Source: Oscillospiraceae bacterium (GTDB lineage: Bacteria > Bacillota > Clostridia > Oscillospirales > CAG-382). Taken from it: DNA of 64,000 nt. The notes under the pieces are model-generated. The model searched no databases. It was not told the DNA's origin and saw only the letters and a list, made by a program, of their open reading frames with translations. Shown here in pieces: positions 9,716 through 63,750 of the stretch. The translations under genes and the position numbers were made by a program. Numbering within the stretch: position 1 is the stretch's first letter; every line of letters starts with the position of its first letter. The stretch spans positions 88,989 to 152,988 of the forward strand of contig SVSD01000001.1 in assembly GCA_015064485.1 (NCBI GenBank), given 5' to 3'.

Positions 9716-9744
9716 ATATTATCATAAATTTACATTTTTGTCAA
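9716..9744 (-). promoter_or_regulatory. Promoter of tRNA-Gln
   Basis: Minus strand TTGACA (9744-9739), 17-nt spacer, TAATAT (9721-9716). Confidence 0.6.
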
Positions 9745-9812
9745 GAGCTTTTTTCAATTTTTTTCATTTTATTTGGTAAAATACTTACAGCAAAACAAAA
9801 ACGGAGAAATAT

Positions 9813-10388
9813 ATGAAGAAAAAACAAAACAAAAACAAGGAACTTATACAAAAATCAGCTTTTGGAGCGGTGTTTTCTGCCTGCGCCTGCGCGCTTTTGC
9901 TTATCGGAGGCATATTCGAAATCCTCGATATGACAGCCTCCGCTCTTGCTTCGCTTGCGGTTTTAATTACATATCTTGAATTCGGATTTTCGACAGCTCT
10001 TTCGGTTTATGCTGTAAGCAGCATTCTTTCTTTTATCCTTAATCCCGTCGCCACATCAAATGTTTATTATATACTTCTTTTAGGCTATTTTCCTGTAGCA
10101 AAGCTTATTATTGACAATAAGTTTAAAAATATCAGACCTCTTCGGGCACTTCTGAAATTTTTGATATTTAATATCGGCTGTGCGGCAATACTTTTCATAT
10201 TTTTTAAACTCACAGGTGCAGACAAGATTATGCAGGAATTCACAATAGGCGCTTTGTCGCCCCGGTATGTGATAATTATCATTTTTGCCCTTTTAAATCT
10301 GTTTCTTGTGCTGTATGACAGAATGATTTCTGTATTATCGGTTTTATATATCCGGGTTTTGAGAAGGCGTTTTTTATCCAAACGATGA
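9813..10388 (+). CDS. Polytopic membrane protein, function unknown
   Basis: K-rich N-terminus then 5-6 hydrophobic segments. GGAGA RBS before the ATG. Confidence 0.55.
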   Translation: MKKKQNKNKELIQKSAFGAVFSACACALLLIGGIFEILDMTASALASLAVLITYLEFGFSTALSVYAVSSILSFILNPVATSNVYYILLLGYFPVAKLIIDNKFKNIRPLRALLKFLIFNIGCAAILFIFFKLTGADKIMQEFTIGALSPRYVIIIIFALLNLFLVLYDRMISVLSVLYIRVLRRRFLSKR

Positions 10389-47305: not shown

Positions 47306-47343
47306 GAAGGGACTTGAAGCCTTTCACAATTATTGAGAAAATC

Positions 47344-47377
47344 AAAAAGGAACTGTAAAATTATACAGTTCCTTTTT
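47344..47377 (-). terminator. Terminator of the pel-cotH-c-di-GMP operon; diverged GGAGCTGTA-family hairpin
   Basis: ggaactgta / tacagttcc, a compensatory G-C to A-T change relative to the other three copies. A/T runs on both sides. Confidence 0.75.
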
Positions 47378-47395
47378 ATATGCTTCGTATAATAT

Positions 47396-48949
47396 TTATG
47401 CCATCTGAGCCTTCATTTCTTTTTTATGCATATACATGGCGTGGTCTGCCTTTAAGAAAACATCAGTATATACATGGTCTATAGACGAATCGAAAAGCGC
47501 AACGCCTCTTGCTATTGATACATCAACCCTTTTATCGCCAACTTCAATGTAATCAGCAGAAAACGCTGCATCCATTTTTTCGATAAGTGTCCTGTAATTC
47601 TCAAAATCTCTTCCCTTCAAAACAACTGCAAATTCATCTCCGCCTATTCTGAAGATCGCACTTGTTTTAAATGTATCTGTGAGTATTTTTGCCGAGTGTA
47701 TAATAAGCTCATTTCCGACATCATGTCCATAGGTGTCGTTTGTTTTCTTGAGATTATTTATATCAGCCACTATTACACCAAAGGAAGGATTTCCAAGATT
47801 TATTTCCTTATTAAGCTGTTCTATTGCTTCGGTATAAGCTGTGCTGTTTTTTATACCTGTAAGAGAATCTCTGAACGCAAGGGCGTTTATATATTCAGAA
47901 TACTCGCGTATTTTTCCATATGTATCATTAAGCACACGGGAAAGAATACCTACTTCATCTTTCGAATCAATAATAAATTCTACTTCCTGTATTCCGGATG
48001 AAATATTTCCTGCCGCCTTGGTTAGTTCCTTTAGAGGCTTAACAATTCTGCTCGTCACCCAAAATGTATAAATAATCGAAAGAACAAGTACTACTAAAAA
48101 CGCGATTACTATATGGGTAAGCATCGGGCGTATACCGCTTTGGATATCTTTATATCCCGCGCGAAGTTCAAGGTTCATTCCGTTTACAAGAGCCTGTGTT
48201 GCCTTTGTATACTCGCCGTAAATCTCGGTTTTTTTGGATGTATTATAACAGGTTTCCATATCCTCTCCGATAAGAAGGGCACAGCCGTTTTCATAAACGG
48301 AAATGCTGTTTACCCGGTCAAGCAGATAATCAAAGTCCATATTAAATCCCAAAATACCGACAAAATCATCTTTGCTGTATACCGGAAGAACATACGATAC
48401 AACCATTTCCTTTGTAAAACGGCTGGGATGAGGTTCTACCCACGAACCGCCTATCGGACTTTTAGCGTTACTGTACTCTACGAGCTCCTCGTCGGTTATA
48501 AGAGAAAGTTTTGAAAAATCATCTTTGGAAAGTTCATATACGCTGCCGTCTTCCATATATTGACAGTAAAAACCTGATGTTATCCCTGTAAGTTCAGGTG
48601 AAAAGCAAAGATAATAAGAACTTGCTCCGGAAGTGTTATATGCCACTTCATCAAACAGATGACGAATTTTTTCCGTATATTCTGCAAGGTATTCTTGGTC
48701 GGAAAGCGACCCGGAGCTTATAAGCTCATGTGATACGTAATGTTCCATTATAGCTACAGATTTAACAAAATCATTAAGCATATCATCAATTTGTGCCACT
48801 TCTTTTTGTGCCACATTATTTAAAATTCTGTCAGCATCTTTATGCATTATTTCATGTGTTATTGTAACTGAGATTGATGTCACTATCAAAGTGATGACAA
48901 CAAGTGCTGAAATTACAACAAAAAGTATTTTGCCTTGTATGGTTTTCAA
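47396..48949 (-). CDS. Membrane-bound diguanylate cyclase: Cache-like sensor, HAMP, GGDEF
   Basis: N-terminal TM, periplasmic-type sensor, second TM + HAMP (IVKPLKELTKAAGNISSG), intact active site RIGGDEFAV. TTG start overlaps the upstream stop (TTGA). Confidence 0.85.
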   Translation of the reverse strand: MKTIQGKILFVVISALVVITLIVTSISVTITHEIMHKDADRILNNVAQKEVAQIDDMLNDFVKSVAIMEHYVSHELISSGSLSDQEYLAEYTEKIRHLFDEVAYNTSGASSYYLCFSPELTGITSGFYCQYMEDGSVYELSKDDFSKLSLITDEELVEYSNAKSPIGGSWVEPHPSRFTKEMVVSYVLPVYSKDDFVGILGFNMDFDYLLDRVNSISVYENGCALLIGEDMETCYNTSKKTEIYGEYTKATQALVNGMNLELRAGYKDIQSGIRPMLTHIVIAFLVVLVLSIIYTFWVTSRIVKPLKELTKAAGNISSGIQEVEFIIDSKDEVGILSRVLNDTYGKIREYSEYINALAFRDSLTGIKNSTAYTEAIEQLNKEINLGNPSFGVIVADINNLKKTNDTYGHDVGNELIIHSAKILTDTFKTSAIFRIGGDEFAVVLKGRDFENYRTLIEKMDAAFSADYIEVGDKRVDVSIARGVALFDSSIDHVYTDVFLKADHAMYMHKKEMKAQMA

Positions 48950-51075
48950 TTTTTCTTCTCCTTGGTTTTGCTTATTTCCGTGTTTGTTGTTTCCTCAACT
49001 TCTGTGAGTATTCTGTGGTAACCTTCAAGCATAATCTTTTTGCTTTCATCTTGTGTGCGGATACCGCTGCTTCTCACATTCACTATTCCAGCGGTCGGAT
49101 GATTCCAACGATATTCAAGCTGTACCGCCTTTTCGCCTTTTTTCATCACGCCGAATGAATTAACAACATATTTGATATCTTCTTTTAAAATACGGCTATA
49201 CCAGTAATCATAGCAGTCAACTGCAGACAACTTTTCCGAAAGGCCGAGAATATGTTCCATAACGCTGTCTACATAAAGCTCATATCGGTTATTTATTTCA
49301 TCAATACGAATTATCCACAAGCCGATATTATTTTTGTGAAGAATATTTTTCGCATCAAAATGTATTGCTCCGAATTCCTCTTTGAATCGCTGTATCTCTT
49401 CAAGTGCTTTCGTTCTGGCCTTATATTTCTCGCAAGCGGGCAAGATATATTTCTCCTCTATCTCCTGAGCTGTCAGCGGTTTATCGAAAAGATATCCCTG
49501 GAAAATATCTGCCTGTAAAGGTTCAAGTATTGAAAGCTCTCTTGCGGTTTCAACACCTTCGCAACAAGCGTCGATCGAATTTGTCTTTGCAAATTCAATA
49601 ACATTGCTGATAAGGCGGTAATTATAAGTATTCTTTTCTATCTCTGTTACAAAGCTTCGGTCTATTTTTATTTCATTGACATCAAGCTGCTTGAGATATC
49701 CGAGGTTAGAATAGCCTGTTCCGAAATCATCTATTGAAAAACGAACACCGTACGATTTTATATATTTGATGATCTCGTAATAATGCTTGTTTTCATTAAG
49801 CTGTATAGTTTCGGTAAGTTCTACCGTAAGAGCACTTCCGGGCAATTCTGTTTTTTTCAGTGCATTTATGATCTTATCTCCGAGTCTTGAATCATCAAAC
49901 TGAACTGATGAAAAATTGACAGCTACCTGAAGATCGGGGATACTTTTACGCCATTCTTTACACTGCAAAAGCGAATTTTCAAGTACCCACATTCCGACAG
50001 GATCAATAAGCCCCGTTTGCTCAAGAATCGGTATAAATTCGTCGGGAAACACTTTCCCGCGTTTTGGAGAATTATATCGAACAAGTGCCTCTACTCCGTA
50101 AAGTTCATATGTTAAGCTTTTTATCTGCGGCTGATATTGAATTTCAAAGCCTTCAAAGTTGTTCTGTACGCTCTCCTTTAGTTCTTCGAGAAGTGTAAGT
50201 TCGCATATTCTCTGATTTATCTGATCGGAAGAAAAGAATTCAACTTGTGTGCTTGAATTCTGCACAGCATTGTGCATTGTGATATTTACAGAGTCAATTA
50301 CTTGCGATACATCTATGAAAATGCTGTCGTCAATCGGAACTACTCCGGCAAAAACTGTGCATTTTTCGTTCATTCTGCCAGAAATCTCTTCGTACAGTTC
50401 TTGTATTTTTTCCATACCGCAACGGCTGATAATAATCGCAAACTTATTATGCTCAGTATGGTATGATTCCTCAACAAGTTCCAATTCTTCGAAAATGTCA
50501 GCCATTTCACAAAGAAGGCTGTTTCCGAAATCTCTTCCGTGAGTCAAATTGATGTCTGCAAGCGAAGGAACTACAAGCATCATAAGCCATCCCTTACCGT
50601 TGTAAAGTCTGTTTTTTAAATCGGCACGAAGTTTTGTTTTATTCCAAAGCCCTGTGATGGGATTGAACAGATGGCGTAACGCCTCCTCCGACAAACGGCC
50701 TATCATAACATGCGGAGTACCGTTTTCATCATGCAAAAGCTTTCCGCGCGAATTTACCCAGACAGTTTCGCCTTTTTTGTTGAAAAGTCTGAAATTCATA
50801 TCGTGCGAATCCCTTAAACCGCTTTTTATTTCTTCCAGGTCTTTGCAAAGTAATTTGCGGTCGGCAGGATGCACAACAGAAAGAAGCTCTTCGTGTGTAG
50901 TACCGCCGCTTTCCGCACTTTTCAGCTCAAATGTATCGCTGATATGGCCGAAAAACTGAATTCTGTTTTCAGGAAGATCAAACATAAACAAAAAATCGTC
51001 TGTTGTCTGATTGATCGCCGCAAGGTATTTTTTTATTGTCGAATAATCTTTTACTGAGCCTAATAAATTATCCAT
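48946..51075 (-). CDS. c-di-GMP phosphodiesterase: PAS, degenerate GGDEF, EAL, C-terminal PAS-like domain
   Basis: EAL motifs YGVEALVRY, ELTE, DDFGTGYSNL, KIDRSF, EGVE, QGY. GGDEF position reads EHNKF. ATG overlaps the upstream stop (ATGGATAA). Confidence 0.85.
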   Translation of the reverse strand: MDNLLGSVKDYSTIKKYLAAINQTTDDFLFMFDLPENRIQFFGHISDTFELKSAESGGTTHEELLSVVHPADRKLLCKDLEEIKSGLRDSHDMNFRLFNKKGETVWVNSRGKLLHDENGTPHVMIGRLSEEALRHLFNPITGLWNKTKLRADLKNRLYNGKGWLMMLVVPSLADINLTHGRDFGNSLLCEMADIFEELELVEESYHTEHNKFAIIISRCGMEKIQELYEEISGRMNEKCTVFAGVVPIDDSIFIDVSQVIDSVNITMHNAVQNSSTQVEFFSSDQINQRICELTLLEELKESVQNNFEGFEIQYQPQIKSLTYELYGVEALVRYNSPKRGKVFPDEFIPILEQTGLIDPVGMWVLENSLLQCKEWRKSIPDLQVAVNFSSVQFDDSRLGDKIINALKKTELPGSALTVELTETIQLNENKHYYEIIKYIKSYGVRFSIDDFGTGYSNLGYLKQLDVNEIKIDRSFVTEIEKNTYNYRLISNVIEFAKTNSIDACCEGVETARELSILEPLQADIFQGYLFDKPLTAQEIEEKYILPACEKYKARTKALEEIQRFKEEFGAIHFDAKNILHKNNIGLWIIRIDEINNRYELYVDSVMEHILGLSEKLSAVDCYDYWYSRILKEDIKYVVNSFGVMKKGEKAVQLEYRWNHPTAGIVNVRSSGIRTQDESKKIMLEGYHRILTEVEETTNTEISKTKEKKN

Positions 51076-51739
51076 GGTACTCTCCGTTATACTGTATCAT
51101 TGTTGCATCTTCAACACCTTCGATGGCTCTTATTTTTTCCATAAAGAATGTGTCATTGTTTTTGCAAAATACTTCGATTGCCATTTCGGTCTTTTCTTTT
51201 CTCAAAGTTTTGGATTTGATAAAGTATTTGATTTTTCCGAGAGCGCGGAGGATGTCATCTCCTGCGCTGTCCCCTGTGTAGTGAACAACAAGGATATAAA
51301 TCCTTCCCTTTTGCTGTTTGTTGTAAAAAATCATTATCATTGCCGTCATAACAATTGCGGCAACAACTACAAGCATATACATTCCCGCGCCCGATGTAAT
51401 ACCTGTTGTGATCGCCCAGAAAAGATACAAAAGGTCAAGCGGATCTTTTACCGCTGTACGGAAACGGACAATTGAAAGGGCACCGACCATACCGAGCGAT
51501 ATTACGATATTTGTACTGATTGCAAGAGTAACCATAGCTGTAAGCAATGTCATACCCACAAGGGTTATGGCAAAACTTCTTGAATAGATTACACCTGTAT
51601 AAAACTTTCTGTATACAAAGTAGATAACCGCACCCATAATAAGCGCTGTTATAAGGCCGAGCGCTATATTTGTTATGCCGGCACCGTCAAAAGCACCGGA
51701 CTCAAGTATTGATTTTTTTATAAAATCCTGTACACTCAT
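51068..51739 (-). CDS. DUF4956-like membrane protein (N-terminal 4-TM region + C-terminal soluble domain)
   Basis: ..LGMVGALSIVRFRTAVKDPLDLLYLFWAITTG.. GGAGGA RBS 5 nt before the ATG. Confidence 0.65.
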   Translation of the reverse strand: MSVQDFIKKSILESGAFDGAGITNIALGLITALIMGAVIYFVYRKFYTGVIYSRSFAITLVGMTLLTAMVTLAISTNIVISLGMVGALSIVRFRTAVKDPLDLLYLFWAITTGITSGAGMYMLVVVAAIVMTAMIMIFYNKQQKGRIYILVVHYTGDSAGDDILRALGKIKYFIKSKTLRKEKTEMAIEVFCKNNDTFFMEKIRAIEGVEDATMIQYNGEYHG

Positions 51740-51753: not shown

Positions 51754-52476
51754 TTAATTTTCATACCAGTATTTGAAGCTGTTCATATATTCTGTTTTTT
51801 CGTAGCAAAGCACATATTTTGATACCGCCGTAAATTCCGATGCTCTGTCGGGAAGAACATCTCTTACAAAACGAGGTAAAAATTCGGTATATTTTACCTC
51901 CATTACACATTTGCCCGGTTCGAGTACGGGTAATGTAGGAAGAGTGTCATCAAAAATATCATAGCTTCCGATGGCTGCTCTTACATCCATATCGAATGTT
52001 ATGCGAACAGTCCCCGCATCGAGTATCCACGGTTCTCTGTCGTAATCGACGATAGTACGGGGCCGCATCATATTACTGACACATTCAACATAAAACTCGC
52101 GGCAAAGCGGGTATTGGCTATGTAAAAGAAAGTCATAATCTCCGTCAAGTATCTTATATACTTCATCTCTTGTGAGTTTTGCCGCTTCTTTGAAGATATA
52201 GCTTCCGAATTTCTTTTTTCGTTCCAGCTTGATACTGCTGTCAGAGCAGTTATAGATACGGATACGATACTTTTTTCGCTCAAGTACGCCCGCATCCTTT
52301 TCATCGTATGCAGTGTTAAAATAGTCGTCAAAATAAAGACTGCGTATCATATATCCGCCCGCTTTTGCATGTTTGTCAAGCTCTAAAAACGGAGGAAGCC
52401 TTTTACAGATAAGCTCTTTCTGAGCCATATCGATAAGATACTTCCATTCGTGTCTGTATCTTTCAGTCTTCGACAT
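51754..52476 (-). CDS. VTC-domain (polyphosphate-polymerase-like, triphosphate-tunnel fold) protein
   Basis: N-terminal RHEWKY (ExExK-type tunnel motif), later IKLERKKK and VMEVKY strands. ATG 52476 with GGAGGA 5 nt upstream, lying inside the last codons of the CotH gene. Confidence 0.7.
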   Translation of the reverse strand: MSKTERYRHEWKYLIDMAQKELICKRLPPFLELDKHAKAGGYMIRSLYFDDYFNTAYDEKDAGVLERKKYRIRIYNCSDSSIKLERKKKFGSYIFKEAAKLTRDEVYKILDGDYDFLLHSQYPLCREFYVECVSNMMRPRTIVDYDREPWILDAGTVRITFDMDVRAAIGSYDIFDDTLPTLPVLEPGKCVMEVKYTEFLPRFVRDVLPDRASEFTAVSKYVLCYEKTEYMNSFKYWYEN

Positions 52477-54232
52477 AAACATCCTCCACAATGTTGCGGT
52501 TTGCGTCTACATAGAAGCATTTTACACCGTATACTTTACCGTTTTCTACTATATAGGAATCGAATGCTGTCTGAGTTTGTCCGCCGGAGTCTTTTGCAGT
52601 TACACGAATGAAATATTGTCCCTGCGGCGGAACATCGAACTGAACGGTAGGTATTTTCAAATCAGTCATTTTTATAATGGGATTGTTAAAAGTATAATCG
52701 GAAGCAAGTTCAAATGTATAGGAGATCATTTCGCTGTCAAAGGTGTAAGAAGCCTCCCACAAAAGATTAGCTTTTCCGTCTTCAACCGTCGGAACACCTA
52801 TATAAAAGGGCATCGGCTTTTCGTAGGACTCTTTATAACTTATGTAATTGCTCTTAATTTCCGGCACAATTGAATTTACAACCGCATCATACTGAACGGG
52901 AGTTATCGGCATATAGCGAGCATCCTTTCCCGAAAAGACAAGCGGCTTTAAAAGCTCGGAATATGTTTTTACATATTCTTCAACTCTTCCGTCCAAAAGC
53001 TTTTCGTAAAGGTCCTCGACCGCCTCGTCAAGCTTTTCACGGTACAATTCGGATTTAAGACAACGCTTAAAAAGGACATTTCCCCAATAGTTACTTACTC
53101 CGTTTTCCCACTCTGTATAATCATTTCTGCCAAGAAGGGCATATTGTCCTCTGTTCAGCATACCGTCAAGGTCCCATGAAAGGATATAAAAGCGGTCGCC
53201 GTTTAATGGGCTGTACATATAAAAGTTTCGGTTCTGGGTATCAACATTTCCAAGTAAAATCTGGAATGCCATCCAGTAAGCTATATTTTCTATATCAAGA
53301 TCCTCTTCGAGTATCGTTTCGATGGGGATAGAATAATCGTTGATTCTGTCAAGCAGGCGAATAAGCTTTGTATGGTCATCATCGCCCTTGATCTCAAGTA
53401 TTTGTTCGAATGCTGTAAGATTGTATCTTTGGTCGTCTTTCAGAACTATAATATCTTCATAACGGTAAAACTCACACAGATTTATTTTGTAAAGATGGCC
53501 TTTTTTATCAAGACCGTGACGCTCGAGCGCAGTTTTATTAAGCTGTTCGACCTGTGTATATATACCGTAATCCTCAAATTTCGCATCATTACCCGAGGTC
53601 AGATCCTTTACATAAAGATGCACAAAAGTGGTACGAAGACTCATAAGCTCGTCAATGCCTGTGAGAAGATCAAATCCTAATTTGTTTCGGAATCTGAGTC
53701 CGTCGCTTTGATGTTTGTTAAGAGCAATTGTCGTCTGACCCCGCCAATCGCCTTTATTGTCTTTAAGCTTAATTTTATAGTTTTTCTGTACATTTCGGCT
53801 GGAGGACTGACCTCTGATTTGCACGGTACAGTTGGGAGCAACATGACCGTAACCCAGTTCCCCGGGTATAAGGCCGTTTTCATCTCCGACTTGTATGAGC
53901 CCGGCTATCTGGTATCGGTCAACACCCATTTCCTCATAATCGTATGCGGAATATGTGTTTATTTCTTCCCATGTGTGGTCGGTGTTCTCAGCGGAATTGC
54001 CGTAGGAAACCGTAAGATACATTGTTACGATCTCGGTATTGTCAAGATTCTCATAAATAAGGTTTTTGTCGCGTATATGTATATCTTCCTCTGTATTTAT
54101 CTCATCTTTTTCGATCACCATACCGAAATCTGTGTCTATCTCACTTTCAAATTTTTCTCCGCAGCCGGAAAGACACATTGCTGAAAAAAGCATCACAAAT
54201 ATACAAATAAAGGATAATTTTTTATTTTTCAT
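52463..54232 (-). CDS. CotH-family kinase-like lipoprotein
   Basis: ATG 54232 gives MKNKKLSFICIFVMLFSAMCLSGC (lipobox). CotH-type blocks ..GLRFRNKLGFDL.., ..NRNFYMYSP.. and ..ILSWDLDG.. C-terminal beta-rich domain. Confidence 0.7.
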   Translation of the reverse strand: MKNKKLSFICIFVMLFSAMCLSGCGEKFESEIDTDFGMVIEKDEINTEEDIHIRDKNLIYENLDNTEIVTMYLTVSYGNSAENTDHTWEEINTYSAYDYEEMGVDRYQIAGLIQVGDENGLIPGELGYGHVAPNCTVQIRGQSSSRNVQKNYKIKLKDNKGDWRGQTTIALNKHQSDGLRFRNKLGFDLLTGIDELMSLRTTFVHLYVKDLTSGNDAKFEDYGIYTQVEQLNKTALERHGLDKKGHLYKINLCEFYRYEDIIVLKDDQRYNLTAFEQILEIKGDDDHTKLIRLLDRINDYSIPIETILEEDLDIENIAYWMAFQILLGNVDTQNRNFYMYSPLNGDRFYILSWDLDGMLNRGQYALLGRNDYTEWENGVSNYWGNVLFKRCLKSELYREKLDEAVEDLYEKLLDGRVEEYVKTYSELLKPLVFSGKDARYMPITPVQYDAVVNSIVPEIKSNYISYKESYEKPMPFYIGVPTVEDGKANLLWEASYTFDSEMISYTFELASDYTFNNPIIKMTDLKIPTVQFDVPPQGQYFIRVTAKDSGGQTQTAFDSYIVENGKVYGVKCFYVDANRNIVEDVYVED

Positions 54233-55685
54233 TATTACTGCCCTCCAGTTTATCTTCGAGAAATTCGCCAAGACGCGAAAACATTCCTGATCTGTCCTCG
54301 CCGACAAGCGGCTGAACAGACAAAATGTAATACGGCAGCCGCTTTGTAAAATAGTCAAGCCGCAAAACTGTACAAACCGCAAAAACAAGCGATGCAAAAA
54401 GGAAGCCGAATCCGTAATATACTTGCGAGAAAAACAGCGATATTATTGTAAAAATCACAGTTGTTGCCGCAAAAGCCGCTGTGGTAACAAGCGTTCCCGT
54501 ATAATCGGTAAAGTAAAGAAGTATCAGCATCAGCATATTTCCGACAGCGTAAATTCCGTATGCAACGCAAAGTGTGCGGAAGTATCCTCGCATAATTTCA
54601 TTGAAGCCCAAAGGAAGCAGATCAAGAAGATATCCGCCGAGCGCAATTACGACGGCTGTGAACAAAAGCTGTTTCAATGCCGTATAAAAAATTTCGGTTT
54701 TAAGAGTTCCGAGCATTTCCTTTTCTGCTTGTTTTATATTGTCAATTGTTCCTTTATCATTATAAAGGCTGTAATGATTTCTGTATTTGGGATAGAAGTT
54801 TACCTCTACAGACACCACAAAATTTACCGTAGTCATAAGGGCTGTCATAAATGCCAGCAGCGCAGGAACATCATGCCAGGGTGCACCGTAAAAAAGTCCG
54901 TGTACCCGTACACCTATATCGGAAAACCACATAATTACGAGATGGGAAAACATACCGATATTCATAAAAAGTCCCGAAAGCGCAAGGGGTAAAAACGAAT
55001 CTATCCATTTTAAAAATGTAAATGCTCCCAAGGTTGTATGAGGAAAATATCTGTGTAAAAGGATAACATTCCAAACAAGCATTACTCCATATCCGAGAGT
55101 AACTGCAAAAAGCAGGGATTCAATTGCGGGAAGACAAAGCCACAAAAGCCATCCGCCGACAATAAGACTTACAGCAACAGATGTCAGAAATGAAAGAAAT
55201 ATTCCCTTATAGTCCTTTATCGCCGAAAGAAAACTCATCGCATTCCAGACAATAATAAGTTCGCCGAAAAGTATGAAGCAAAGTATCCCTTGCAAAGCCG
55301 TAGCTCCCGAAAAAATCAGAAAAATTCCGTAAAGGATACATCCGATAGACAGCATTATAACCGTCGAACCCCAGAACGAGGGAAGCACCGCTTCTTTCTT
55401 CTCTTCAAAAAGCATATCCGCCACATATCTTGTTACGACCATAGAAAAGAAGGATGTAACCGTAACCGAAGCAAGGAGAGTATATGTTATCATACATATA
55501 AGAAGCTCCCTTTGGTAAAGCGCAGTATTAAAAAATATGCAAAGCATCGTAATTCCGATAAGAAGAAGCACACCGAGAAGCATCGGGCCTGTACATATTA
55601 CCGCCGCATATCCGTATGCCTTACAAGAATTCAGCACACCTTTTTTGGCAAATAGTTTTTTTAGTTCAAAACCGATCCCGGCCAT
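54222..55685 (-). CDS. pelG: PelG-like polysaccharide export/biosynthesis membrane protein
   Basis: MAGIGFELKKLFAKKG.. N-terminus and ~12 TM segments. Position after pelF. Confidence 0.7.
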   Translation of the reverse strand: MAGIGFELKKLFAKKGVLNSCKAYGYAAVICTGPMLLGVLLLIGITMLCIFFNTALYQRELLICMITYTLLASVTVTSFFSMVVTRYVADMLFEEKKEAVLPSFWGSTVIMLSIGCILYGIFLIFSGATALQGILCFILFGELIIVWNAMSFLSAIKDYKGIFLSFLTSVAVSLIVGGWLLWLCLPAIESLLFAVTLGYGVMLVWNVILLHRYFPHTTLGAFTFLKWIDSFLPLALSGLFMNIGMFSHLVIMWFSDIGVRVHGLFYGAPWHDVPALLAFMTALMTTVNFVVSVEVNFYPKYRNHYSLYNDKGTIDNIKQAEKEMLGTLKTEIFYTALKQLLFTAVVIALGGYLLDLLPLGFNEIMRGYFRTLCVAYGIYAVGNMLMLILLYFTDYTGTLVTTAAFAATTVIFTIISLFFSQVYYGFGFLFASLVFAVCTVLRLDYFTKRLPYYILSVQPLVGEDRSGMFSRLGEFLEDKLEGSNNEK

Positions 55686-57091
55686 TCGTTTTCCACCTCT
55701 TTATAGAGATCTCTGTATTTTGTAAGCATAATATTGTATCTGAAATACTCATACGCTCGTTTTTGTCCTATTTCGCCCATTTTAAGACGAACTTCTCTTG
55801 ATTCGCATAAAAGCTCCATCGCATCGGCAAGTTTTTCTCTCTGCATAGGAGGAGCAAAATATCCCGCTTTTCCGAGATTGTCTCCCGGCTTTCCGTTTAA
55901 AAGCTCGCTGCAGCATCCGACATCGGTTGTAACCGCAGGACGCTGTGCTGCAAAAGATTCAAGAACCGATAAAGGCTGTCCTTCCGAAATGCTTGTAAGC
56001 AATGTGAAATCAAGCTTTTCAAAATATTCGATTATATTTACCCGTCCTGTGAAAATTATTTTATCTTCAAGGCCAAGCTGTCTTACCAAAGCATAACATT
56101 CATCGGCATAATCCTGATCGTCAACACCGCCCATTATGTGAAGTCTGACATTATCTTTTCTTGCACAAAGCTCGAAAAATGCGTATATCATTGTTTTTAT
56201 ATCTTTGATGGGTGCAAGTCTTACAACCGCACCGATATCGACAAACCCGTCATCTTCTTTAAGAGGAATATTGCAAAGTCTTTCGTAGCTGATGCCGTTT
56301 TCGATAACTCTGCATTTTGACGGATCGCATCCCATATCTATCTGTGTATGCATCGCCCTTGTGAAAAGCGAAGTTACACGGAATGATCTTTCATATGCAA
56401 GATCTGAAAGCATATAAAAGAAATCTATCCAATGCGGTTTAAAAGCTCTTGCCACCCATTTCGCACGGATTATTTCTTCTTCCCTTTCGCGGGTATAGAT
56501 TCCGTGTTCTGTAAGAAGCATCGGCTTTTTCATAATATACGACGCCATCGACGCCAAAAGGCCGCCGTATCCTGTACATATTGCGTGATAACAATCGGCT
56601 TTGGGTATTCTTGTACCCATCAGATAAAGAACCGGCAAAAGACGGGATCTTACAGAATGGAATGTATCTGAAAATGCGATAAAAGGGAAATCCCTTTTAC
56701 AGGTTTCTGTAAGAGTTTCAAGAAAGCTTTCGCTTTTAAGGTATGACATAGGATTTATACGGCGCACCTGATACATTTCAAAAAGAAGGTTCCAATCAGG
56801 CTTGTCCGAGGAAACAAGGCGTCTGAGCGCCTCCTTTTCCTTTTCGTTAAAATGATGGTCAAATATCCCCGAATCCTTTACTCTCAGTGCATCGTCGAGA
56901 AATACCTGCTCGACTTCCACAACATTCTGCGGAAGAGTATATACAAATTTATCTTTGTCCTGAGCTTTTGCACCAATTACCCAAAGCACAAATTCGTGTT
57001 CGGGCATTTCGTTTATGTATTGATGCATCCAGGTGGAAACGCCTCCGTTGATATACGGATAACAGCCTTCCAAAACCAAACAGATCCTCAC
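55661..57091 (-). CDS. pelF: PelF-like GT4 glycosyltransferase
   Basis: GTG start after AGGAG. MRICLVLEGCYPYINGGVSTWMHQ (PelF N-terminal domain). EX7E block EGQPLSVLE. Confidence 0.8.
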   Translation of the reverse strand: MRICLVLEGCYPYINGGVSTWMHQYINEMPEHEFVLWVIGAKAQDKDKFVYTLPQNVVEVEQVFLDDALRVKDSGIFDHHFNEKEKEALRRLVSSDKPDWNLLFEMYQVRRINPMSYLKSESFLETLTETCKRDFPFIAFSDTFHSVRSRLLPVLYLMGTRIPKADCYHAICTGYGGLLASMASYIMKKPMLLTEHGIYTREREEEIIRAKWVARAFKPHWIDFFYMLSDLAYERSFRVTSLFTRAMHTQIDMGCDPSKCRVIENGISYERLCNIPLKEDDGFVDIGAVVRLAPIKDIKTMIYAFFELCARKDNVRLHIMGGVDDQDYADECYALVRQLGLEDKIIFTGRVNIIEYFEKLDFTLLTSISEGQPLSVLESFAAQRPAVTTDVGCCSELLNGKPGDNLGKAGYFAPPMQREKLADAMELLCESREVRLKMGEIGQKRAYEYFRYNIMLTKYRDLYKEVENEWPGSVLN

Positions 57092-57100: not shown

Positions 57101-58954
57101 CTATTTCAAAGTTATTTCAACAACAGGTTCAGTTGCCGCAAGCAGATATAATCCGCCGGTTTGATGTGTCAAAGTTGCACCCTTTACATTTTCGGGTGTC
57201 TTTTCATTAAACCGTACAAGCATCTGAACTTCATCGTAAAAATTATCTATTGTTATTTTAACGCAGTCTTCATAAATTTCTGTCTTTGCCGACGCTGCAA
57301 CATACCTTTGTACCGCCGCCGAGGTTTCGGTACCCGTCATATTGCGAAGACCTTTTGCCGAACCATAAAGCCATGACAAAAACGAATTGAATCTTTTTTT
57401 CATTTCTCCCCAGCCAAGCTCCGCTCCTCTTTCGGGGTCAAGAGCATCGTCGGGGTGAGTAAAATGGGAATTGATAAAATGCAGATTAAGCTCGGATACA
57501 GCTGCAAGGCTTTGGAAATCATCAAGAATAAATCCTGAAATTACACGGGGCTGATCGACAATTCCGTTTTTATCCACATCAAACTCCTGCATACAGCCAA
57601 ACTGCAGTTCACCATATGCCTCATCGTCAAAATAAATTCCCGAGATTGTTCTTATTTGAGGATATTCCTTTATTAAGAAATCTCTTCCCTCGTCTGCCAA
57701 AAGGTTTGACGGCGGAACATACAAGGCGAATTCTGTATCGGGGAAAAGTTTGTCGCATAGATCAACAAGCTCATCAAAAGCTTTCTTCATCGCCTCTTCC
57801 GATTCCCATATCTTATACGGAAATACAGACATATAATCGCCGTAAAGACAAAGGGGCTGATGGTTATATCCGTGATATCCCAACTCTCCGCCTTTTCGGA
57901 GAAGCATATTCCCGAAATTTAAAAATGTGCCTGTATCGGGCTTTGCTTCAAGCGTTCCGTCTACATTATCGTCATACGATTCGATGGCAAGACCCGTATA
58001 TTTAATACCGTATTTATCGGCAAAATTCAGCATATCCGGCCACCAGATATTTATGTAAAAATCACGGATCGTCGTCTGATAATCGCGCATAATATATTCG
58101 CTGTTGCCGCTCGGTATCTGCGACGGGAAATCGTCAAGATAATATACCGATGCATTTATGACGGGATATGCACACACATCAGAAAGAAGGCTGTACGATG
58201 CCGCATAAAACCCGCGCATTGCCTTTTCATATATTCCGATATTGTCAACTACAAATATGCCTTCTCCGTATTTCGTTCTCCATACAAGCGGGACACCATT
58301 CTCATTTTCTGCTGCTGCATAAACCTTTGCGTTATCTGACAAAACTACTGTCTTTGCACATTCAAACGGATTTGAAAGTCCGAAAGCCCGGCCGCCGCCT
58401 ATCATAAATCCTTCGTTTAGAAAGATACTTTCAACCACATAATACTCGGGTGCGACATCGTCAATCCCGATCATCTGGATAATTGCCGAGGAATAGGCGT
58501 TTGATTCAAGTGTAAGCGGAAACCAAGCGGCGCCGCCGTTATGAACCCACTCTACAAGATCTATCAAAGACCCACCCATCGGGGAAAGATCTGCAAGAAG
58601 TACGATAACTTCCGAAAAGCCTTCGAACGAAGGAATGCTATCCTTTGAAAGGTCTATATCCTTATATCCGACCTTCATATCGTTGAGAATACAAAAGAAC
58701 TCCTCGTATGCGTCAGATGATGCGGCATCCCCGCTGTCACGCAAAAGAAGCGCCTTTTGCGGAAGGACAGAATATACTTCTTCTTTGGTAAAAGTATTTT
58801 CGTCGGGCAAAAATTCAAGCTGTCTTTGAAATCGGTTTGCCTGAATACCGCTCAGTTCTATAAACAGTATTGTTGCAATAGCCAAAAACACAAAGAGTAT
58901 TGCAAGAATTCCCTTGTATTTGAATTTGTATATCCGATGTATCAATTCGTCCAA
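57101..58954 (-). CDS. pelA: PelA-like deacetylase-domain protein (DUF2194-like), membrane anchored
   Basis: N-terminal TM. Candidate CE4-type metal triad YLDDFPS and YHGYNH. Position between pelE and pelF as in Gram-positive pel loci. TTG start is tentative. Confidence 0.5.
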   Translation of the reverse strand: MDELIHRIYKFKYKGILAILFVFLAIATILFIELSGIQANRFQRQLEFLPDENTFTKEEVYSVLPQKALLLRDSGDAASSDAYEEFFCILNDMKVGYKDIDLSKDSIPSFEGFSEVIVLLADLSPMGGSLIDLVEWVHNGGAAWFPLTLESNAYSSAIIQMIGIDDVAPEYYVVESIFLNEGFMIGGGRAFGLSNPFECAKTVVLSDNAKVYAAAENENGVPLVWRTKYGEGIFVVDNIGIYEKAMRGFYAASYSLLSDVCAYPVINASVYYLDDFPSQIPSGNSEYIMRDYQTTIRDFYINIWWPDMLNFADKYGIKYTGLAIESYDDNVDGTLEAKPDTGTFLNFGNMLLRKGGELGYHGYNHQPLCLYGDYMSVFPYKIWESEEAMKKAFDELVDLCDKLFPDTEFALYVPPSNLLADEGRDFLIKEYPQIRTISGIYFDDEAYGELQFGCMQEFDVDKNGIVDQPRVISGFILDDFQSLAAVSELNLHFINSHFTHPDDALDPERGAELGWGEMKKRFNSFLSWLYGSAKGLRNMTGTETSAAVQRYVAASAKTEIYEDCVKITIDNFYDEVQMLVRFNEKTPENVKGATLTHQTGGLYLLAATEPVVEITLK

Positions 58955-59820
58955 AACGCAAGTGCCTCCTTTGTTTTTGACGATAAGTAAATATGGCTGT
59001 TTTCAACTTTGGTTATGAATTTTCTTATTTCATCGCCTTTATTGAGCGAAGCTAAATACTGTATGTTCAAAAGTATATATTCGTCACAAGCCGGCCATTT
59101 TTCGCCCATTATCGAAATAATATTTTCGGCGGAATAAAAGTTTTTGCGCTTTAGTTCATTTTCCGCAAGCCGGGCGTAGTCAGAAATATCTTCGGAAACT
59201 TCAATCTTTTTGTGCATCAGTTGCGAAAACAATTCTCTGTTCATAACTTCAACCTGACCCTGCATAAGGTTCTGAGATAAACACCCCCATAAGAAATCGC
59301 AGTATTCGGAAAGAACCTTCATATCGTTGGGATTTGCATTATACTCGTTGTCAAGCTTTTGAAGCATATAGTCGTTTTCTTTTGATATTTCCACCATCGC
59401 AGTTACTGCATAATGAACAACTTCTGTATCGTCGTTGTTGCCCGCCTTTTGCAAAAATTCGACATAATCTCCCGGATTGTCATTCAAAACATCCATAATA
59501 AGAGAACGGCGTTCTCTTGCGGAATTTATGATAAGCGCCTCTTCTATCGGGACTGTCATATCAGACCTTTTGTCATCTACTGTAATACTTCGGTAAAGCT
59601 CTGACTCAAGCTTTAACTTTTCCACATCAATTTCCGCCGAATCATCAGCGTCAAAAGCGATCTGGAAATGCAAGATCATAACAATAAGCGGTCCCCAAAA
59701 GGGAAGAAAAAGCGCAACGAAAAACATATATTTATGTACCGACAAAATTTCGAATTGAATTCCCAGGAATATAAGCAGGCACACCAAAAGATGCAAAACC
59801 GCCGGTATTATGTAAATCAT
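58942..59820 (-). CDS. pelE: PelE-like protein (two N-terminal TM segments + helical repeat domain)
   Basis: Architecture and position only. No strong motif. Confidence 0.45.
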   Translation of the reverse strand: MIYIIPAVLHLLVCLLIFLGIQFEILSVHKYMFFVALFLPFWGPLIVMILHFQIAFDADDSAEIDVEKLKLESELYRSITVDDKRSDMTVPIEEALIINSARERRSLIMDVLNDNPGDYVEFLQKAGNNDDTEVVHYAVTAMVEISKENDYMLQKLDNEYNANPNDMKVLSEYCDFLWGCLSQNLMQGQVEVMNRELFSQLMHKKIEVSEDISDYARLAENELKRKNFYSAENIISIMGEKWPACDEYILLNIQYLASLNKGDEIRKFITKVENSHIYLSSKTKEALAFWTN

Positions 59821-59832: not shown

Positions 59833-62619
59833 TTATTTCAGTACGGTTGTAATAATATCAAGATCCTTAAAGCGGGGTAAAATAAAATCAAGATCCTTTT
59901 CGGACGCCTGCGAAAGGATAAGTCTTAGTTTTCCGTCTTCCGTAATTCCGAGGATATCGGTAGTTCTTATCTTTCCCAAAAGCATAGCGTCTGCCTCCTG
60001 CAAAGTATGTCCGTTTAAATCAAACTCAAATATTATGTTTGAAGAAACTTTTTTCTCGGCAAGCGCTGAGAAGTTTTTCATACACTCTGCAAAATATTCC
60101 GCATTCATAATACGGGTTCCTTTAATATACTGTTTTTCTATCAAAGCTGTGTTATAATCATACGCGCGCAAAAGCGACATCTGTACAAGGTCACGCAATA
60201 TCTTGAAAAGGTTCACATAATAAAGCGATCTCTGGTCAATGTCGGCATGCCACAAAAAGATCATAAGTATCAACTCTTCACCTCTGTATACTCCTGCGGC
60301 ATACATCGGATACTCGCTTTTAAGCTCTGTGTTTTTCCATATACCGCCGTCTTTAAGCTGTTCGATAACCGGTGCGTATGCATCTACCGAAACAGAACGG
60401 GCAGCAACATCAAGAAGATCTCTTGATGCAACTTCAAGACGGCCGAAGGCTGTATTTTGCTTAACCGAATATACTGTTATACTTTTGTTTTCAAGTATCT
60501 CTTCAAAGGTTTCTATAATTCTCAGATAAAGCTTTTGAGGGGCGACTGTATTAAGCCGTCTTGTGATATCGAATATCTTGCCGAAGCTGTCCTTGGAGCT
60601 TATTATCTGCTTTTTGAGCTCCTTTTTGTCTTTTAAGGTATCTTCGTATATTTCTGATGTGAAAATCAACTTGTCTTCAAGCAGTTTGTTTTGTTCTTCA
60701 AGAAACTTGTTATGATCCTCTTTTTTGAGATTTACATAACCGCAAAGTGCTCCGACCAAAAAGAAGAATACGAATGCCAGCCAGTTTGTCGGTTCATAAA
60801 AAATGGTAAACGCATTTGTACCTGCCGCAATTTTGGCAAAGAAATATGAGATACTCGAAAGAGTTGCCGCCGCAATACCGTATGAAAGGCCGTAAAGTGT
60901 CGCCATAATAACAATAAATATTGTGCGGAAATCAACAATCGCAAAAATCACCGCGGAATCGGTTATATGTATAAACAGTTCGGAAAGCAAAAACAAAAGG
61001 ATAAGTTCAACTGTTTTTATGATAGGAGAATGGGTTGCTATCCAATCTTTGATTTTGTCAAATAAGCCTTCTTTTTTCTGCTGTTTTGTAGAAAGATAAA
61101 GCTCATACTGTTCTGCCAGTTCCTCAATAATCGAAATTTTTGCAAACCAACCGTATTCGCTTCTCAGCGCAGTATTTATTGTTTTGAGTATTCCGGAACA
61201 TTTGGATTCCACAAAATGTATTTTAGCATTTTTATCCAGCTGATAAATTCTTTCGGCAAAATCCGAAAATGTAATGCCGAACTCGTCACCCACACTCAAA
61301 ATACCACTTCCGGCCTTCCAGTTATCAACAATACGGATGATAAGCTCTGAAAGATCGCAAAGAGAGAGGAAATGCATTCTGGAGGATGCGGCTTCGTGCA
61401 TTTCTACGGTTTTTTTGTTGTATATAGCGTCAAAAACTTTATAAAGAAAATCTTTTTTATATGTTCCCGAATATAGATACGGGATCTGTACAGTTTTTAT
61501 ATCAAGCGAATGATTTTTTGTATAAAAATCGCAAAGCTTTTCGTTGGCAGATGCCATTATCGCCTTATCGGTTTTGTCCGCAAAGGATGAATCAAGCGGT
61601 GAAAGATAGAGTATTTTAGTGCCTTTCTGAAGCTGTGCCGAATACTGCAGAACTTCACGCAGCTCTTCCGCATCATTTTTATCGGTAGAATGAAAACGCA
61701 GCCCTGCAGAAAAGAATACCACAAGGTCAAATTCATATGTTTCAAGTATTGCTTTTATTGACGGTTTCCGTACACGGAAAAGCTTTATCTTATCGGTTTT
61801 TCCAAGTTCTCTGTTGTTAACCACCATAACTTTGCTTTGCGGGAAAGTGGTCTTTACAAATTCTTCGGTAATATATCCTGTATTTCCTATAAGCAAAACT
61901 CTTTTAAGACGGATATCCGAAAAATCACCGATAACGCTCCTCTTTCTTTGAACATTTTCTCTGAATGTGACAAGCTCTCTGTGATTTACGACCCGCATAA
62001 GACATTCGACAAGCTCTTCGTCGAATGTTCCGCACATTCCGCTTGAAATCATCTGGAGAGCAACATCCTGCGAAAAGGCTTCTTTATAGCTGCGGGAACT
62101 TGTAAGAGCGTCATAAGAATCGGCGAGTGAAACCGCCTGCGCCCAAAGGGGGATTTCCTTTCCGCGCAATCCGTCAGGGTAGCCTGTACCGTCAATTCTT
62201 TCGTGGTGATATCTTGCAATCTGCGCAGCATACTCGATAGTTTTATCGCTTATATCTTCGTGCTGTGCTGTGCGGATGATCTGTTCGCCGAACACCGCAT
62301 GTTTTTTAACAATATCATATTCAACCGGTGAAAGAGTACCCGGATAATTGAGAATACTCTTCGGAATCTGAAGTTTGCCTATATCGTGAAGCGTACTTGC
62401 TGTTGATATTGCAGCAATATCCTCTTCCGAAAGGGATATTTCGGGCTTATATACACAAAGTTCACAAAGGAGATATTCACAGATCTTCATTACATGATAT
62501 ATATGATATATGCTCTCTCCGTTAAGCTCTCTTTCTTCCGCATCCTCGGCAAGATATTCTGTTTTTATCTTGTTTATGCCGTTTTCCGAATACAAAGAAA
62601 GAATAGGTGATCCTTGCAT
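59833..62619 (-). CDS. pelD: PelD-like c-di-GMP receptor with extra N-terminal HD-GYP domain (HD-GYP / SDR-like / TM / GAF / degenerate GGDEF)
   Basis: HDIGK and HHERIDGTGYP. Rossmann-like RVLLIGNTGYITEEF. About 4 TM segments at roughly residues 545-650. C-terminal RTTD (RxxD) exactly 5 residues before EDGKL in the GGDEF position. Confidence 0.65.
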   Translation of the reverse strand: MQGSPILSLYSENGINKIKTEYLAEDAEERELNGESIYHIYHVMKICEYLLCELCVYKPEISLSEEDIAAISTASTLHDIGKLQIPKSILNYPGTLSPVEYDIVKKHAVFGEQIIRTAQHEDISDKTIEYAAQIARYHHERIDGTGYPDGLRGKEIPLWAQAVSLADSYDALTSSRSYKEAFSQDVALQMISSGMCGTFDEELVECLMRVVNHRELVTFRENVQRKRSVIGDFSDIRLKRVLLIGNTGYITEEFVKTTFPQSKVMVVNNRELGKTDKIKLFRVRKPSIKAILETYEFDLVVFFSAGLRFHSTDKNDAEELREVLQYSAQLQKGTKILYLSPLDSSFADKTDKAIMASANEKLCDFYTKNHSLDIKTVQIPYLYSGTYKKDFLYKVFDAIYNKKTVEMHEAASSRMHFLSLCDLSELIIRIVDNWKAGSGILSVGDEFGITFSDFAERIYQLDKNAKIHFVESKCSGILKTINTALRSEYGWFAKISIIEELAEQYELYLSTKQQKKEGLFDKIKDWIATHSPIIKTVELILLFLLSELFIHITDSAVIFAIVDFRTIFIVIMATLYGLSYGIAAATLSSISYFFAKIAAGTNAFTIFYEPTNWLAFVFFFLVGALCGYVNLKKEDHNKFLEEQNKLLEDKLIFTSEIYEDTLKDKKELKKQIISSKDSFGKIFDITRRLNTVAPQKLYLRIIETFEEILENKSITVYSVKQNTAFGRLEVASRDLLDVAARSVSVDAYAPVIEQLKDGGIWKNTELKSEYPMYAAGVYRGEELILMIFLWHADIDQRSLYYVNLFKILRDLVQMSLLRAYDYNTALIEKQYIKGTRIMNAEYFAECMKNFSALAEKKVSSNIIFEFDLNGHTLQEADAMLLGKIRTTDILGITEDGKLRLILSQASEKDLDFILPRFKDLDIITTVLK

Positions 62620-62744
62620 TTTAAATATCTCCTTCCTGCGAAATTTTATAGTTATCGCATTATGTCATAAAACTATACATTATAATTATATAATGCATTT
62701 ATTAAAAAAATGTTAACAATGAAGTTTTTATGCCCGCAATCGAC

Positions 62745-62776
62745 AAAAAACAGGCGATAAAAATCGCCTGTTTTTT
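62745..62776 (-). terminator. Terminator separating the acyltransferase gene from the pel operon
   Basis: aaaaaacaggcgat-aaaa-atcgcctgtttttt. Confidence 0.8.
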
Positions 62777-62790
62777 CAATATTAGTATTT

Positions 62791-63750
62791 TTACCGATTG
62801 GAAACCTTTTTTGATTTGAACAATTTCATTATGTATGTAACTAAAGCACAAAACAGCATTGACACAGCTATACAAAGCGCATACCCTATAAGTGTATGCA
62901 TTTGTATATTTCTGAAAACAAGCTCCATTATACCGACTGCAGCTATATGGGTAAGATATATCACAAGGCTGTTTTTTCCCCAGGCAGTGAAAAATGTTTT
63001 TCTTCTCGGCACAAGCACAAGAATAGGAATTCCCGCGCAGACTGCCATAACATAATGGAAGGCACGGAAGAAAATATTATACTGTCCGTTATTATAGCTA
63101 AACGAACCGTAAAGCCATTCGGAATTAATTTCCGGAGAAACAAGAATAAATACTATACACAAAGCCGCAAAAAGGATACCTGCGGTAATTCTTACCGACT
63201 TTCTTCTGAAGCGTTTTAAAAAGTCGGTCTGCGATTTCTCCCTGTCGTATTTCTTTGCAAAAAATCCTGTCATAAAATATGGATAAAATACGATTATTCT
63301 TGAAAAGGATACGAAATATCCGACCGAATCGTCAAAACCGAAAAGACAAGATATGATTATAGATATTAGTATTGTCGGAATTCTCCACCAAGCACCTATC
63401 TTATCAAGCAGAGGTGTTGTAAGCCTCCAGAAGCAGAGGGCAAGAAGATACCACAAAATCCATACCGGCGTCGTTGCCTGAATAACCTGCATCGAAAAAA
63501 TGCAATATATAAATTGGCATATGACATACGGAATGAGTATCTTTTTTACTATTTTATCAGTCGAACTTGAGGCAAGATATCCCGAACAGAAAACAAACAG
63601 CGGCATATGGAAAAGATATATAAGCTTATATCCCGCAAGGGTGTTTCCCATCGGAAGTCTTTCGAGAAGATGCCCGAGAACCACAAGAACGATAAGAATA
63701 CCTTTTACATTATCCCAGAAATTCAAACGGAAAAAAGATTCTTTATTCAT
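62791..63750 (-). CDS. Acyltransferase family 3 membrane protein (sugar O-acyltransferase type)
   Basis: ..FWDNVKGILIVLVVLGHLL.. N-terminus and ~10 TM segments. Confidence 0.75.
   Translation of the reverse strand: MNKESFFRLNFWDNVKGILIVLVVLGHLLERLPMGNTLAGYKLIYLFHMPLFVFCSGYLASSSTDKIVKKILIPYVICQFIYCIFSMQVIQATTPVWILWYLLALCFWRLTTPLLDKIGAWWRIPTILISIIISCLFGFDDSVGYFVSFSRIIVFYPYFMTGFFAKKYDREKSQTDFLKRFRRKSVRITAGILFAALCIVFILVSPEINSEWLYGSFSYNNGQYNIFFRAFHYVMAVCAGIPILVLVPRRKTFFTAWGKNSLVIYLTHIAAVGIMELVFRNIQMHTLIGYALCIAVSMLFCALVTYIMKLFKSKKVSNR

Follow-up and report, generated by a model that had tools for sequence, protein, structure and literature searches.

An apparently intact HD-GYP domain fused to a PelD-type receptor at the head of a Gram-positive pel operon in gut and rumen Clostridia

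How a single diffusible messenger can serve many outputs and still act specifically is a long-standing question for c-di-GMP (cyclic dimeric guanosine monophosphate). The leading answer invokes local sources and local sinks, docked at the effectors, and comes mostly from protein-protein interaction data, as for the Escherichia coli cellulose synthase, where the phosphodiesterase PdeK and the cyclase DgcC bind BcsB as local sink and source (PMC7397504). For the Pel exopolysaccharide, the c-di-GMP receptor is PelD, and polymerization is permitted when it is occupied. Residues R367/D370/R402 of the Pseudomonas aeruginosa PelD and R363/D366/R395 of the Bacillus cereus PelD are needed for c-di-GMP binding, and in B. 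cereus this RxxD motif and second Arg are essential for both binding and biofilm formation (PMC7112168). Extended-length PelDs with a domain of the short-chain dehydrogenase/reductase (SDR) type were described from clostridia, streptococci and actinobacteria, and in the pel loci of clostridia and streptococci, the cotH, polyphosphate-polymerase and DUF4956 genes were counted as accessory (Whitfield et al., 2020, PMC7112168). Composite proteins with both HD-GYP and GGDEF domains are known as well (Aq_2027, MASE9-HD-GYP-GAF-GGDEF; Galperin and Chou, 2021 preprint, bioRxiv 10.1101/2021.11.05.467447), and in DvhD, a Desulfovibrio PAS/HD-GYP receptor of c-di-GMP (9rbz), HD is replaced by SQ and HH by MN and c-di-GMP is not hydrolyzed. 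Here we describe a pelD gene whose product carries an apparently intact HD-GYP domain of the phosphodiesterase type at its N-terminus. It was found in a stretch of 64,000 nucleotides (nt) from an Oscillospiraceae bacterium (GCA_015064485.1, contig SVSD01000001.1, positions 88,989 to 152,988), hereafter the window.

The fused pelD is a single uninterrupted frame of 928 codons with an ATG start on the minus strand, and its start codon is preceded, at a distance of 9 nt, by a ribosome-binding-site-like sequence (GGAAGGAG). The initial annotation, made from the sequence alone, had reported an open reading frame (ORF) of 928 amino acids (aa) at 59833-62619 without giving its strand, and had divided it by eye into five regions. 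The ORF is real and all five regions were recovered, with the motifs HDIGK, HHERIDGTGYP, RVLLIGNTGY, RTTD and EDGKL located in them; the domain scan, the structure prediction and the search for the fusion in other genomes that it had proposed as checks all came out favorable. Its HD-GYP domain was borne out, while the N-terminal boundary was displaced: the domain begins near E35/H39 and spans residues ~31-215 rather than ~60-215. An AlphaFold2 (AF2) model of all 928 residues was built from 64 family members and had a mean predicted local distance difference test score (pLDDT) of 81 and a predicted template modeling score (pTM) of 0.40. Because of this pTM, the geometry between the domains was left unused. 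Pfam assigned only the HD-GYP part; the SDR, GAF and PelD_GGDEF parts were recognized by neither Pfam nor NCBIfam, weak matches aside. In the orthologue set, mean identity was 66% for the HD-GYP domain, 56% for both the SDR and the degenerate GGDEF (dGGDEF) parts and 65-74% for the membrane region, the long juxtamembrane helix and the GAF domain. The long helix (residues 634-691) was the best-conserved segment (74%) and the N-terminal hairpin (residues 1-30) was weakly conserved (26%).

The N-terminal region agreed with HD-GYP models and retained all metal ligands, as judged by Pfam, sequence searches of the PDB, a family profile and conservation among orthologues. Pfam HD_5 matched residues 62-201 with E=2.4e-26 (93 bits against a gathering cutoff of 27.2) and Pfam HD matched residues 37-171 with E=1.5e-16. 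The PDB sequence searches returned the active enzymes PmGH (4mcw) and PA4781 (4r8z) as well as V-cGAP3, which is specific for cyclic GMP-AMP (cGAMP). With the family profile, the E-values were 7.5e-39 for PmGH and 5.4e-36 for V-cGAP3, and PA4781 was also matched. The fold was recovered when the full-length AF2 model was searched with Foldseek (4r8z, E=5e-11, template modeling (TM) score 0.74-0.75; also 4mcw and the DvhD structure 9rbz). Both defining motifs of the HD-GYP family, HD and HHExh(D/N)GxGYP, are present, as HDIGK at residues 78-82 and HHERIDGTGYP at residues 138-148.

In the profile alignment, E35-x-x-x-H39 corresponds to E185-x-x-x-H189 of PmGH, and the PmGH ligands H221, D222, H250, H276, H277 and D305 correspond to H78, D79, H107, H138, H139 and D167. 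The other PmGH residues were mapped in the same way (the catalytic K225 to K82, G284/Y285/P286 to 146-148, D308 to D170 and the guanine-binding R314/K317 to R176/K179), with the roles of the metal ligands, K225 and R314/K317 taken from PMC4159591. The metal ligands, K82, GYP, R176 and K179 are invariant across 74 orthologues except for D167 (74/75; one Tyr), and position D170 is Asp in 72 and Glu in 3 of the 75 sequences. HD-GYPs with an equivalent of E185, the trinuclear class, hydrolyze c-di-GMP to GMP and also hydrolyze pGpG. Since a ligand of this type is present (E35), the fused HD-GYP was placed in this class. As a catalytic residue set, the domain is apparently intact.

When only ATG starts were allowed, 10 orthologues were gapped at E35/H39; all 10 have an in-frame LNGESGFH upstream. 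In eleven orthologues, no ATG stands where the start is expected (loci L020, L021, L023, L026, L036, L038, L040, L045, L063, L072 and L074). GTG or TTG appears to serve as their start codon (for example ...FVQRENN...), and automated gene calls may truncate their N-termini.

For the receptor half, a separate AF2 model of residues 640-928 (pLDDT 84.5) was made and searched with Foldseek, because the list obtained with the full-length model was dominated by SDR structures and showed no PelD. The C-terminal model matched two-domain GAF-GGDEF proteins, with DcsbIS (4zmu) as the top match. The P. aeruginosa PelD was found at ranks 5, 8 and 14 (4etz with E=1.6e-6, 4etx and 4dmz; E from 1.6e-6 to 1.1e-5), with ~280 aligned columns over both domains. 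The predicted layout is therefore that of PelD, a membrane anchor followed by a cytoplasmic GAF domain and a degenerate GGDEF domain. At the sequence level, Pfam PelD_GGDEF gave no match at E<=1 in the fused PelD, and a profile of 30 diverse SDR-PelD C-termini did not retrieve PelD from the PDB. The same profile had weak generic matches to GGDEF domains of the PDB (E=0.002-0.07), in which RxxD was aligned with the I-site and the E/D-G motif with GGEEF. RTTD (residues 885-888) lies exactly five residues before EDGKL (894-898), the I-site spacing noted in the initial annotation. R885, D888 and R916 are invariant in the 74 fused orthologues. Among 114 representatives of the wider SDR-PelD family, the first Arg is kept in 109 and the Asp and R916 in all 114. 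The RxxD of the I-site and the second Arg are retained and the catalytic GGDEF motif is lost, and this I-site would be expected to bind c-di-GMP.

Between the two halves lie the SDR domain and the membrane region. The SDR part of the AF2 model, which contains RVLLIGNTGY at residues 240-249, matched UDP-sugar epimerases and dehydratases, that is GalE-like extended SDRs (6zll, 3m2p and others), with TM scores to the target of ~0.66-0.70, and the Rossmann fold of GalE type was thus recovered by Foldseek. The GxxGxxG motif is not kept, its place being taken by GNTGYIT in this protein and by GNTEYLT in the family consensus and most orthologues. YxxxK was not found by eye on the helix after the ILYLSPL strand, where AIMASANEKL stands instead. 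These degenerate motifs agree with the description of the domain in clostridial PelD as "likely catalytically inactive" (PMC7112168), the same work that bears out the SDR-like domain which the initial annotation had named for some Gram-positive PelDs. Hydrophobic helices were located at residues ~531-553, 556-579, 580-598 and 611-633 from hydropathy, sequence and the AF2 model. Their even number places the HD-GYP domain and the receptor part on the same cytoplasmic side.

The genomic context supports the assignment to PelD. The fused gene is the first of a tightly packed minus-strand operon, pelD-E-A-F-G-cotH-VTC-DUF4956-EAL-dCache cyclase (Table 1), in which pelE, pelF and pelG follow in the Gram-positive order pelD-E-A(DA)-F-G. 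The putative pelE was assigned by its position and helices, and no Pfam match was found for it. The order from pelD to DUF4956 is kept in every related locus that reaches far enough. Together with the layout of the protein, this context supports the view that the product of the fused gene is PelD, a subunit of the Pel exopolysaccharide synthase of the Gram-positive type, in line with the PelD-like receptor of the initial annotation.

Table 1. Position of the fused pelD, its parts and the surrounding features in the window
Feature	Position	Strand	Size, basis or remark
Fused HD-GYP-SDR-4TM-GAF-dGGDEF PelD gene (TM, transmembrane helix)	59833..62619	minus	928 aa + stop codon
Residues 1-30, N-terminal beta-hairpin	62530..62619	minus	AF2 strands 4-12 and 15-23
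Residues 31-215, HD-GYP domain	61975..62529	minus	Pfam, PDB sequence matches, Foldseek, conservation
Residues 239-515, degenerate extended SDR (GalE-like)	61075..61905	minus	Foldseek, weak NCBIfam and PDB sequence matches, motif
Residues 530-633, membrane region, four hydrophobic helices	60721..61032	minus	hydropathy, AF2, weak DUF4118 match
Residues 634-691, long juxtamembrane helix joining TM4 to GAF	60547..60720	minus	AF2 models, conservation
Residues 692-830, GAF domain	60130..60546	minus	AF2 C-terminal model, Foldseek
Residues 831-928, truncated degenerate GGDEF, EDGKL replacing GGDEF	59836..60129	minus	PDB profile matches, Foldseek
I-site RTTD, R885-D888	59956..59967	minus	alignment and conservation
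Codon of partner Arg R916	59872-59874	minus	
Putative pelE	58942..59820	minus	292 aa; two N-terminal hydrophobic helices, helical C-terminus; position as in pelDEA(DA)FG
pelA(DA), DUF2194	57101..58954	minus	Pfam, E=7.9e-141
pelF, DUF3492 + GT1 glycosyltransferase	55661..57091	minus	Pfam
pelG	54222..55685	minus	PF16933, E=2.2e-132
cotH, accessory gene	52463-54397	minus	
VTC/polyphosphate polymerase-like, accessory gene	51754-52491	minus	
DUF4956, accessory gene	51068-51739	minus	
PAS-degenerate GGDEF-EAL-PAS protein	48946..51075	minus	EALVR, DDFG and EGVE motifs intact
dCache-HAMP-GGDEF diguanylate cyclase, last gene of the operon	47396..48949	minus	GGDEF intact, without RxxD
Terminator-like hairpin with T-rich tail	47343..47378	minus	18 nt past the last operon gene
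Upstream gene, Acyl_transf_3 family acyltransferase	62791-63750	minus	

Three c-di-GMP turnover domains (the EAL, the GGDEF cyclase and the fused HD-GYP) and one receptor are encoded in this one transcription unit. In four related loci, a dCache-GGDEF homologue lies directly 5' of the fused pelD (L023 5972-7513, L028 8174-9715, L029 1781-3328 and L037 1-759), with 34-42% identity. As the cyclase is placed upstream in these loci and at the end of the operon in the window, it seems to travel with the locus. The mechanical ORFs of pelG and cotH overlap by 176 nt in the window; in L082, an unfused SDR-PelD relative, PelG and CotH were called as a single gene of 1072 aa (6805-10023), which would be a PelG-CotH fusion. 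The gap between pelD and pelE is 12 nt in the window and ~310-440 nt in the most distant fused loci, L068-L071, whose hosts are Pseudoflavonifractor, Ruthenibacterium, Angelakisella and one Clostridiaceae metagenome-assembled genome (MAG). In the 171-nt gap upstream of pelD (62620-62790), the scan called neither a sigma-70-like promoter nor a terminator. An 11-bp inverted repeat (AAACAGGCGAT/ATCGCCTGTTT) past the acyltransferase gene looks terminator-like by eye and was not called by the scan.

The GTDB species-representative genomes were searched with the family alignment, which gave 253 stretches with relatives, of which 80 were kept. The whole protein was present as one uninterrupted tblastn high-scoring segment pair (HSP) in 74 of these 80 loci (46-78% identity), and the remaining six were cut by contig ends. 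The fusion is thus carried whole by at least 74 species-level genomes. The full architecture was also found in >120 protein clusters (90% identity) of 922-979 aa each. The hosts are mostly ruminant or fecal Clostridia MAGs (Candidatus Flemingiibacterium, Acutalibacteraceae and Oscillospiraceae), and isolate assemblies show Angelakisella massiliensis and Pseudoflavonifractor phocaeensis to be cultured carriers. At the source, every named homologue is labeled either "HD domain-containing protein" or "HD domain-containing phosphohydrolase", so that its identity as a Pel receptor is missing from these records.

An exhaustive search with residues 227-928 gave 1106 representatives at E<=0.001, 415 of them below 1e-30. 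Among the best 150 of the 1106, nearly all are ~700 aa long and start at the SDR domain. An N-terminal extension of ~225 aa was seen among these 150 only in P0122, which is complete, and in P0123, whose C-terminal end is divergent and in which the TM region is missing. In a neighbor-joining tree, the fused proteins formed one clade of 77 leaves within the unfused SDR-PelD family; the fusion therefore arose once and was retained. The only unfused member inside this clade is P0121 (L001 224-2701), from a single metagenomic contig. Its ORF runs 5' of the called start and encodes, in frame, a remnant of the last HD-GYP helices (ERLVDCLEKV...RENL), the remainder of the domain being replaced by unrelated sequence. 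This remnant points to a secondary loss of the domain or to a chimera in the metagenome contig, not to the ancestral state. In the two nearest unfused relatives, P0124 and P0125, pelD is likewise the first gene of such an operon and no HD-GYP gene lies beside it, and an origin of the fusion from an adjacent HD-GYP gene is therefore unsupported.

The architecture, the conserved residues, the operon context and the one origin and later retention of the fusion are established by these observations. From them, we favor, with a probability of roughly 0.55, an active phosphodiesterase tethered to its own receptor as a local sink or reset for the activation of Pel. In such a system, c-di-GMP from a dedicated cyclase (the dCache-HAMP-GGDEF protein of the operon) would bind the RxxD/R916 I-site and activate the PelDEFG complex. 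The HD-GYP domain, on the same cytoplasmic face and in the same polypeptide, would hydrolyze free c-di-GMP near the receptor, probably to GMP. A sink tethered in this way would raise the activation threshold and shield Pel from c-di-GMP of the global pool, and it would stop Pel synthesis quickly once the local cyclase ceases. We infer that the HD-GYP domain acts on c-di-GMP and that it is functionally coupled to the I-site. The higher identity of the HD-GYP domain compared with the SDR and dGGDEF parts was counted for selection on this domain, and the retention of HD and HH, both lost in the DvhD receptor, for an active enzyme. DgcC and PdeK on the cellulose synthase provide a precedent for a local sink.

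Several observations weigh against this interpretation. The domain arrangement of the AF2 model is unreliable (pTM 0.40), and proximity of the HD-GYP active site to the I-site is therefore unsupported by the model. The equivalent of PmGH D183, the Ala mutant of which is inactive (PMC4159591), is Asn in all fused members (N33, codon 62521-62523, within LNGESGxH). The acidic residue is thus missing at a position that lies outside the defining motif of the HD-GYP family, and N33 may tune or limit catalysis. The PmGH mutants of GYP, R314 and K317 retained most activity (PMC4159591), so the conserved GYP, R176 and K179 argue for nucleotide binding and not strictly for catalysis. Substrate specificity is unreadable from the sequence, as V-cGAP3, a 3'3'-cGAMP phosphodiesterase, scores nearly as well as PmGH. 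Finally, the operon already contains an EAL phosphodiesterase, beside which a second sink looks redundant.

A further step would be a self-resetting receptor-enzyme, in which occupancy of the I-site, passed on through the long helix and the dimer, switches the HD-GYP on or off. We regard this as a tentative proposal that is rather unlikely to hold. If true, the Pel synthase would be a pulse or adaptation device rather than a simple on/off switch, its PelD would provide the first case of a subunit of an exopolysaccharide synthase that is shown both to sense c-di-GMP and to destroy it, and the fusion would prove, through a natural covalent link, the "local sink" model of how second messengers act specifically.

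Two other functions of the HD-GYP domain are both improbable in our judgment, and about equally so. The domain could be a second nucleotide-sensing or protein-docking module instead of a turnover enzyme. In this case, c-di-GMP or pGpG might be bound but not efficiently hydrolyzed, or the GYP surface might bring a GGDEF protein, for instance the cyclase of the operon, to the Pel complex. That HD-GYPs can be pure receptors is known from DvhD, N33 stands where an Ala mutant of PmGH is inactive, and a dCache-GGDEF cyclase is always nearby, either as a gene of the operon or immediately upstream of pelD; RpfG, moreover, reportedly binds GGDEF proteins through its GYP motif. However, the known receptor-type HD-GYPs have lost metal ligands, whereas the fused PelDs keep all eight and K82 at 46-78% identity, with one Tyr at D167. 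Such conservation across divergent orthologues is hard to explain without metal-dependent chemistry. Alternatively, the domain could be an active enzyme with another substrate, either 3'3'-cGAMP, as a cross-wired second signal, or pGpG, which it would clear after its production by the EAL protein. The cGAMP-specific V-cGAP3 matched with an E-value close to that of PmGH, HD-GYPs of the trinuclear class hydrolyze pGpG, EAL enzymes produce pGpG, and one is encoded in the same operon. Against this, the equivalents of the guanine-contacting R314/K317 are invariant, the receptor half of the protein and both enzymes of the operon are c-di-GMP parts, and a scan of the window ORFs from 30 to 64 kb showed no cGAMP synthase.

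The possibility that a sequencing frameshift or assembly error joined an HD-GYP gene to pelD, or that the ORF arose by chance, for which the called start of the L001 pelD after the HD-GYP region might speak, is excluded for practical purposes by one continuous ORF in 74 independent species-level assemblies, isolates among them, each with a single HSP over residues 1-928, and in >120 clusters of 922-979 aa with a common architecture, as well as by the lack of an HD-GYP gene beside pelD in the nearest unfused relatives and the in-frame helix remnant in L001.

If the HD-GYP domain of the fused PelD is active, this covalent receptor-phosphodiesterase would be a natural fusion supporting the local source and sink model, a compact system with receptor occupancy, local hydrolysis and polysaccharide output in one complex. 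It would not overturn current ideas; it would offer a widespread and tractable natural case of a signal-degrading enzyme within a receptor. With cultured carriers among the Clostridia species of gut and rumen that have it (at least 74), the fusion is testable, and it is relevant to how gut commensals produce matrix.

HD-GYP-GAF-GGDEF enzymes and SDR-PelDs were already known. The HD-GYP-PelD fusion was found in no searched paper: it is unmentioned in PMC7112168 and its supplementary genome list, in bioRxiv 10.1101/2021.11.05.467447, in a review of c-di-GMP receptor evolution and in full-text searches, and none of the fusion-carrying genera is in the genome set of PMC7112168. The nearest relatives are the Gram-positive SDR-PelDs. 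Residues ~239-928 share with them the SDR-TM-GAF-dGGDEF/RxxD layout, the position at the head of pelDEA(DA)FG and the accessory genes, whereas the fused PelD adds ~225 N-terminal residues that form the apparently intact HD-GYP domain. The PelDs of P. aeruginosa and B. cereus (4dn0, 4etz and 4dmz) have the same fold of GAF and degenerate GGDEF domains and the same RxxD with a second Arg, the second Arg following the first by 31 residues here, against 32 (B. cereus) and 35 (P. aeruginosa). They differ in showing no detectable match at the sequence level, in the orientation of the domains (root-mean-square deviation ~17 A) and in having neither an SDR nor an HD-GYP domain.

The HD-GYP domain resembles trinuclear HD-GYPs of the PmGH/TM0186/PA4108 type in HHExhDGxGYP, in the eight ligands including the E185 equivalent, in the equivalents of K225, R314 and K317 and in fold. 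In contrast to those, it is N-terminal, with the 30-aa hairpin alone before it and no sensor such as REC or GAF, a membrane-anchored receptor comes after it, and the D183 equivalent is Asn. DvhD likewise has an HD-GYP within a membrane-anchored biofilm regulator and is a structural match, but its HD-GYP is degenerate, whereas the catalytic set appears intact here and a separate dGGDEF would serve as the receptor site. The composite HD-GYP/GGDEF proteins also have an HD-GYP N-terminal to GAF-GGDEF in one polypeptide. They were described as signaling enzymes rather than as parts of a polysaccharide synthase. In the fused PelD, the GGDEF is a truncated and degenerate domain of the I-site-receptor kind, an SDR and four TM helices lie between, and the gene belongs to a pel operon. 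The DgcC/PdeK pair is alike in that a c-di-GMP phosphodiesterase stands beside a c-di-GMP-activated synthase with a dedicated cyclase encoded nearby. In that pair, the phosphodiesterase, an EAL protein, is a chain of its own that protein-protein contacts keep in place, whereas here the putative sink is an HD-GYP domain built covalently into the receptor subunit.

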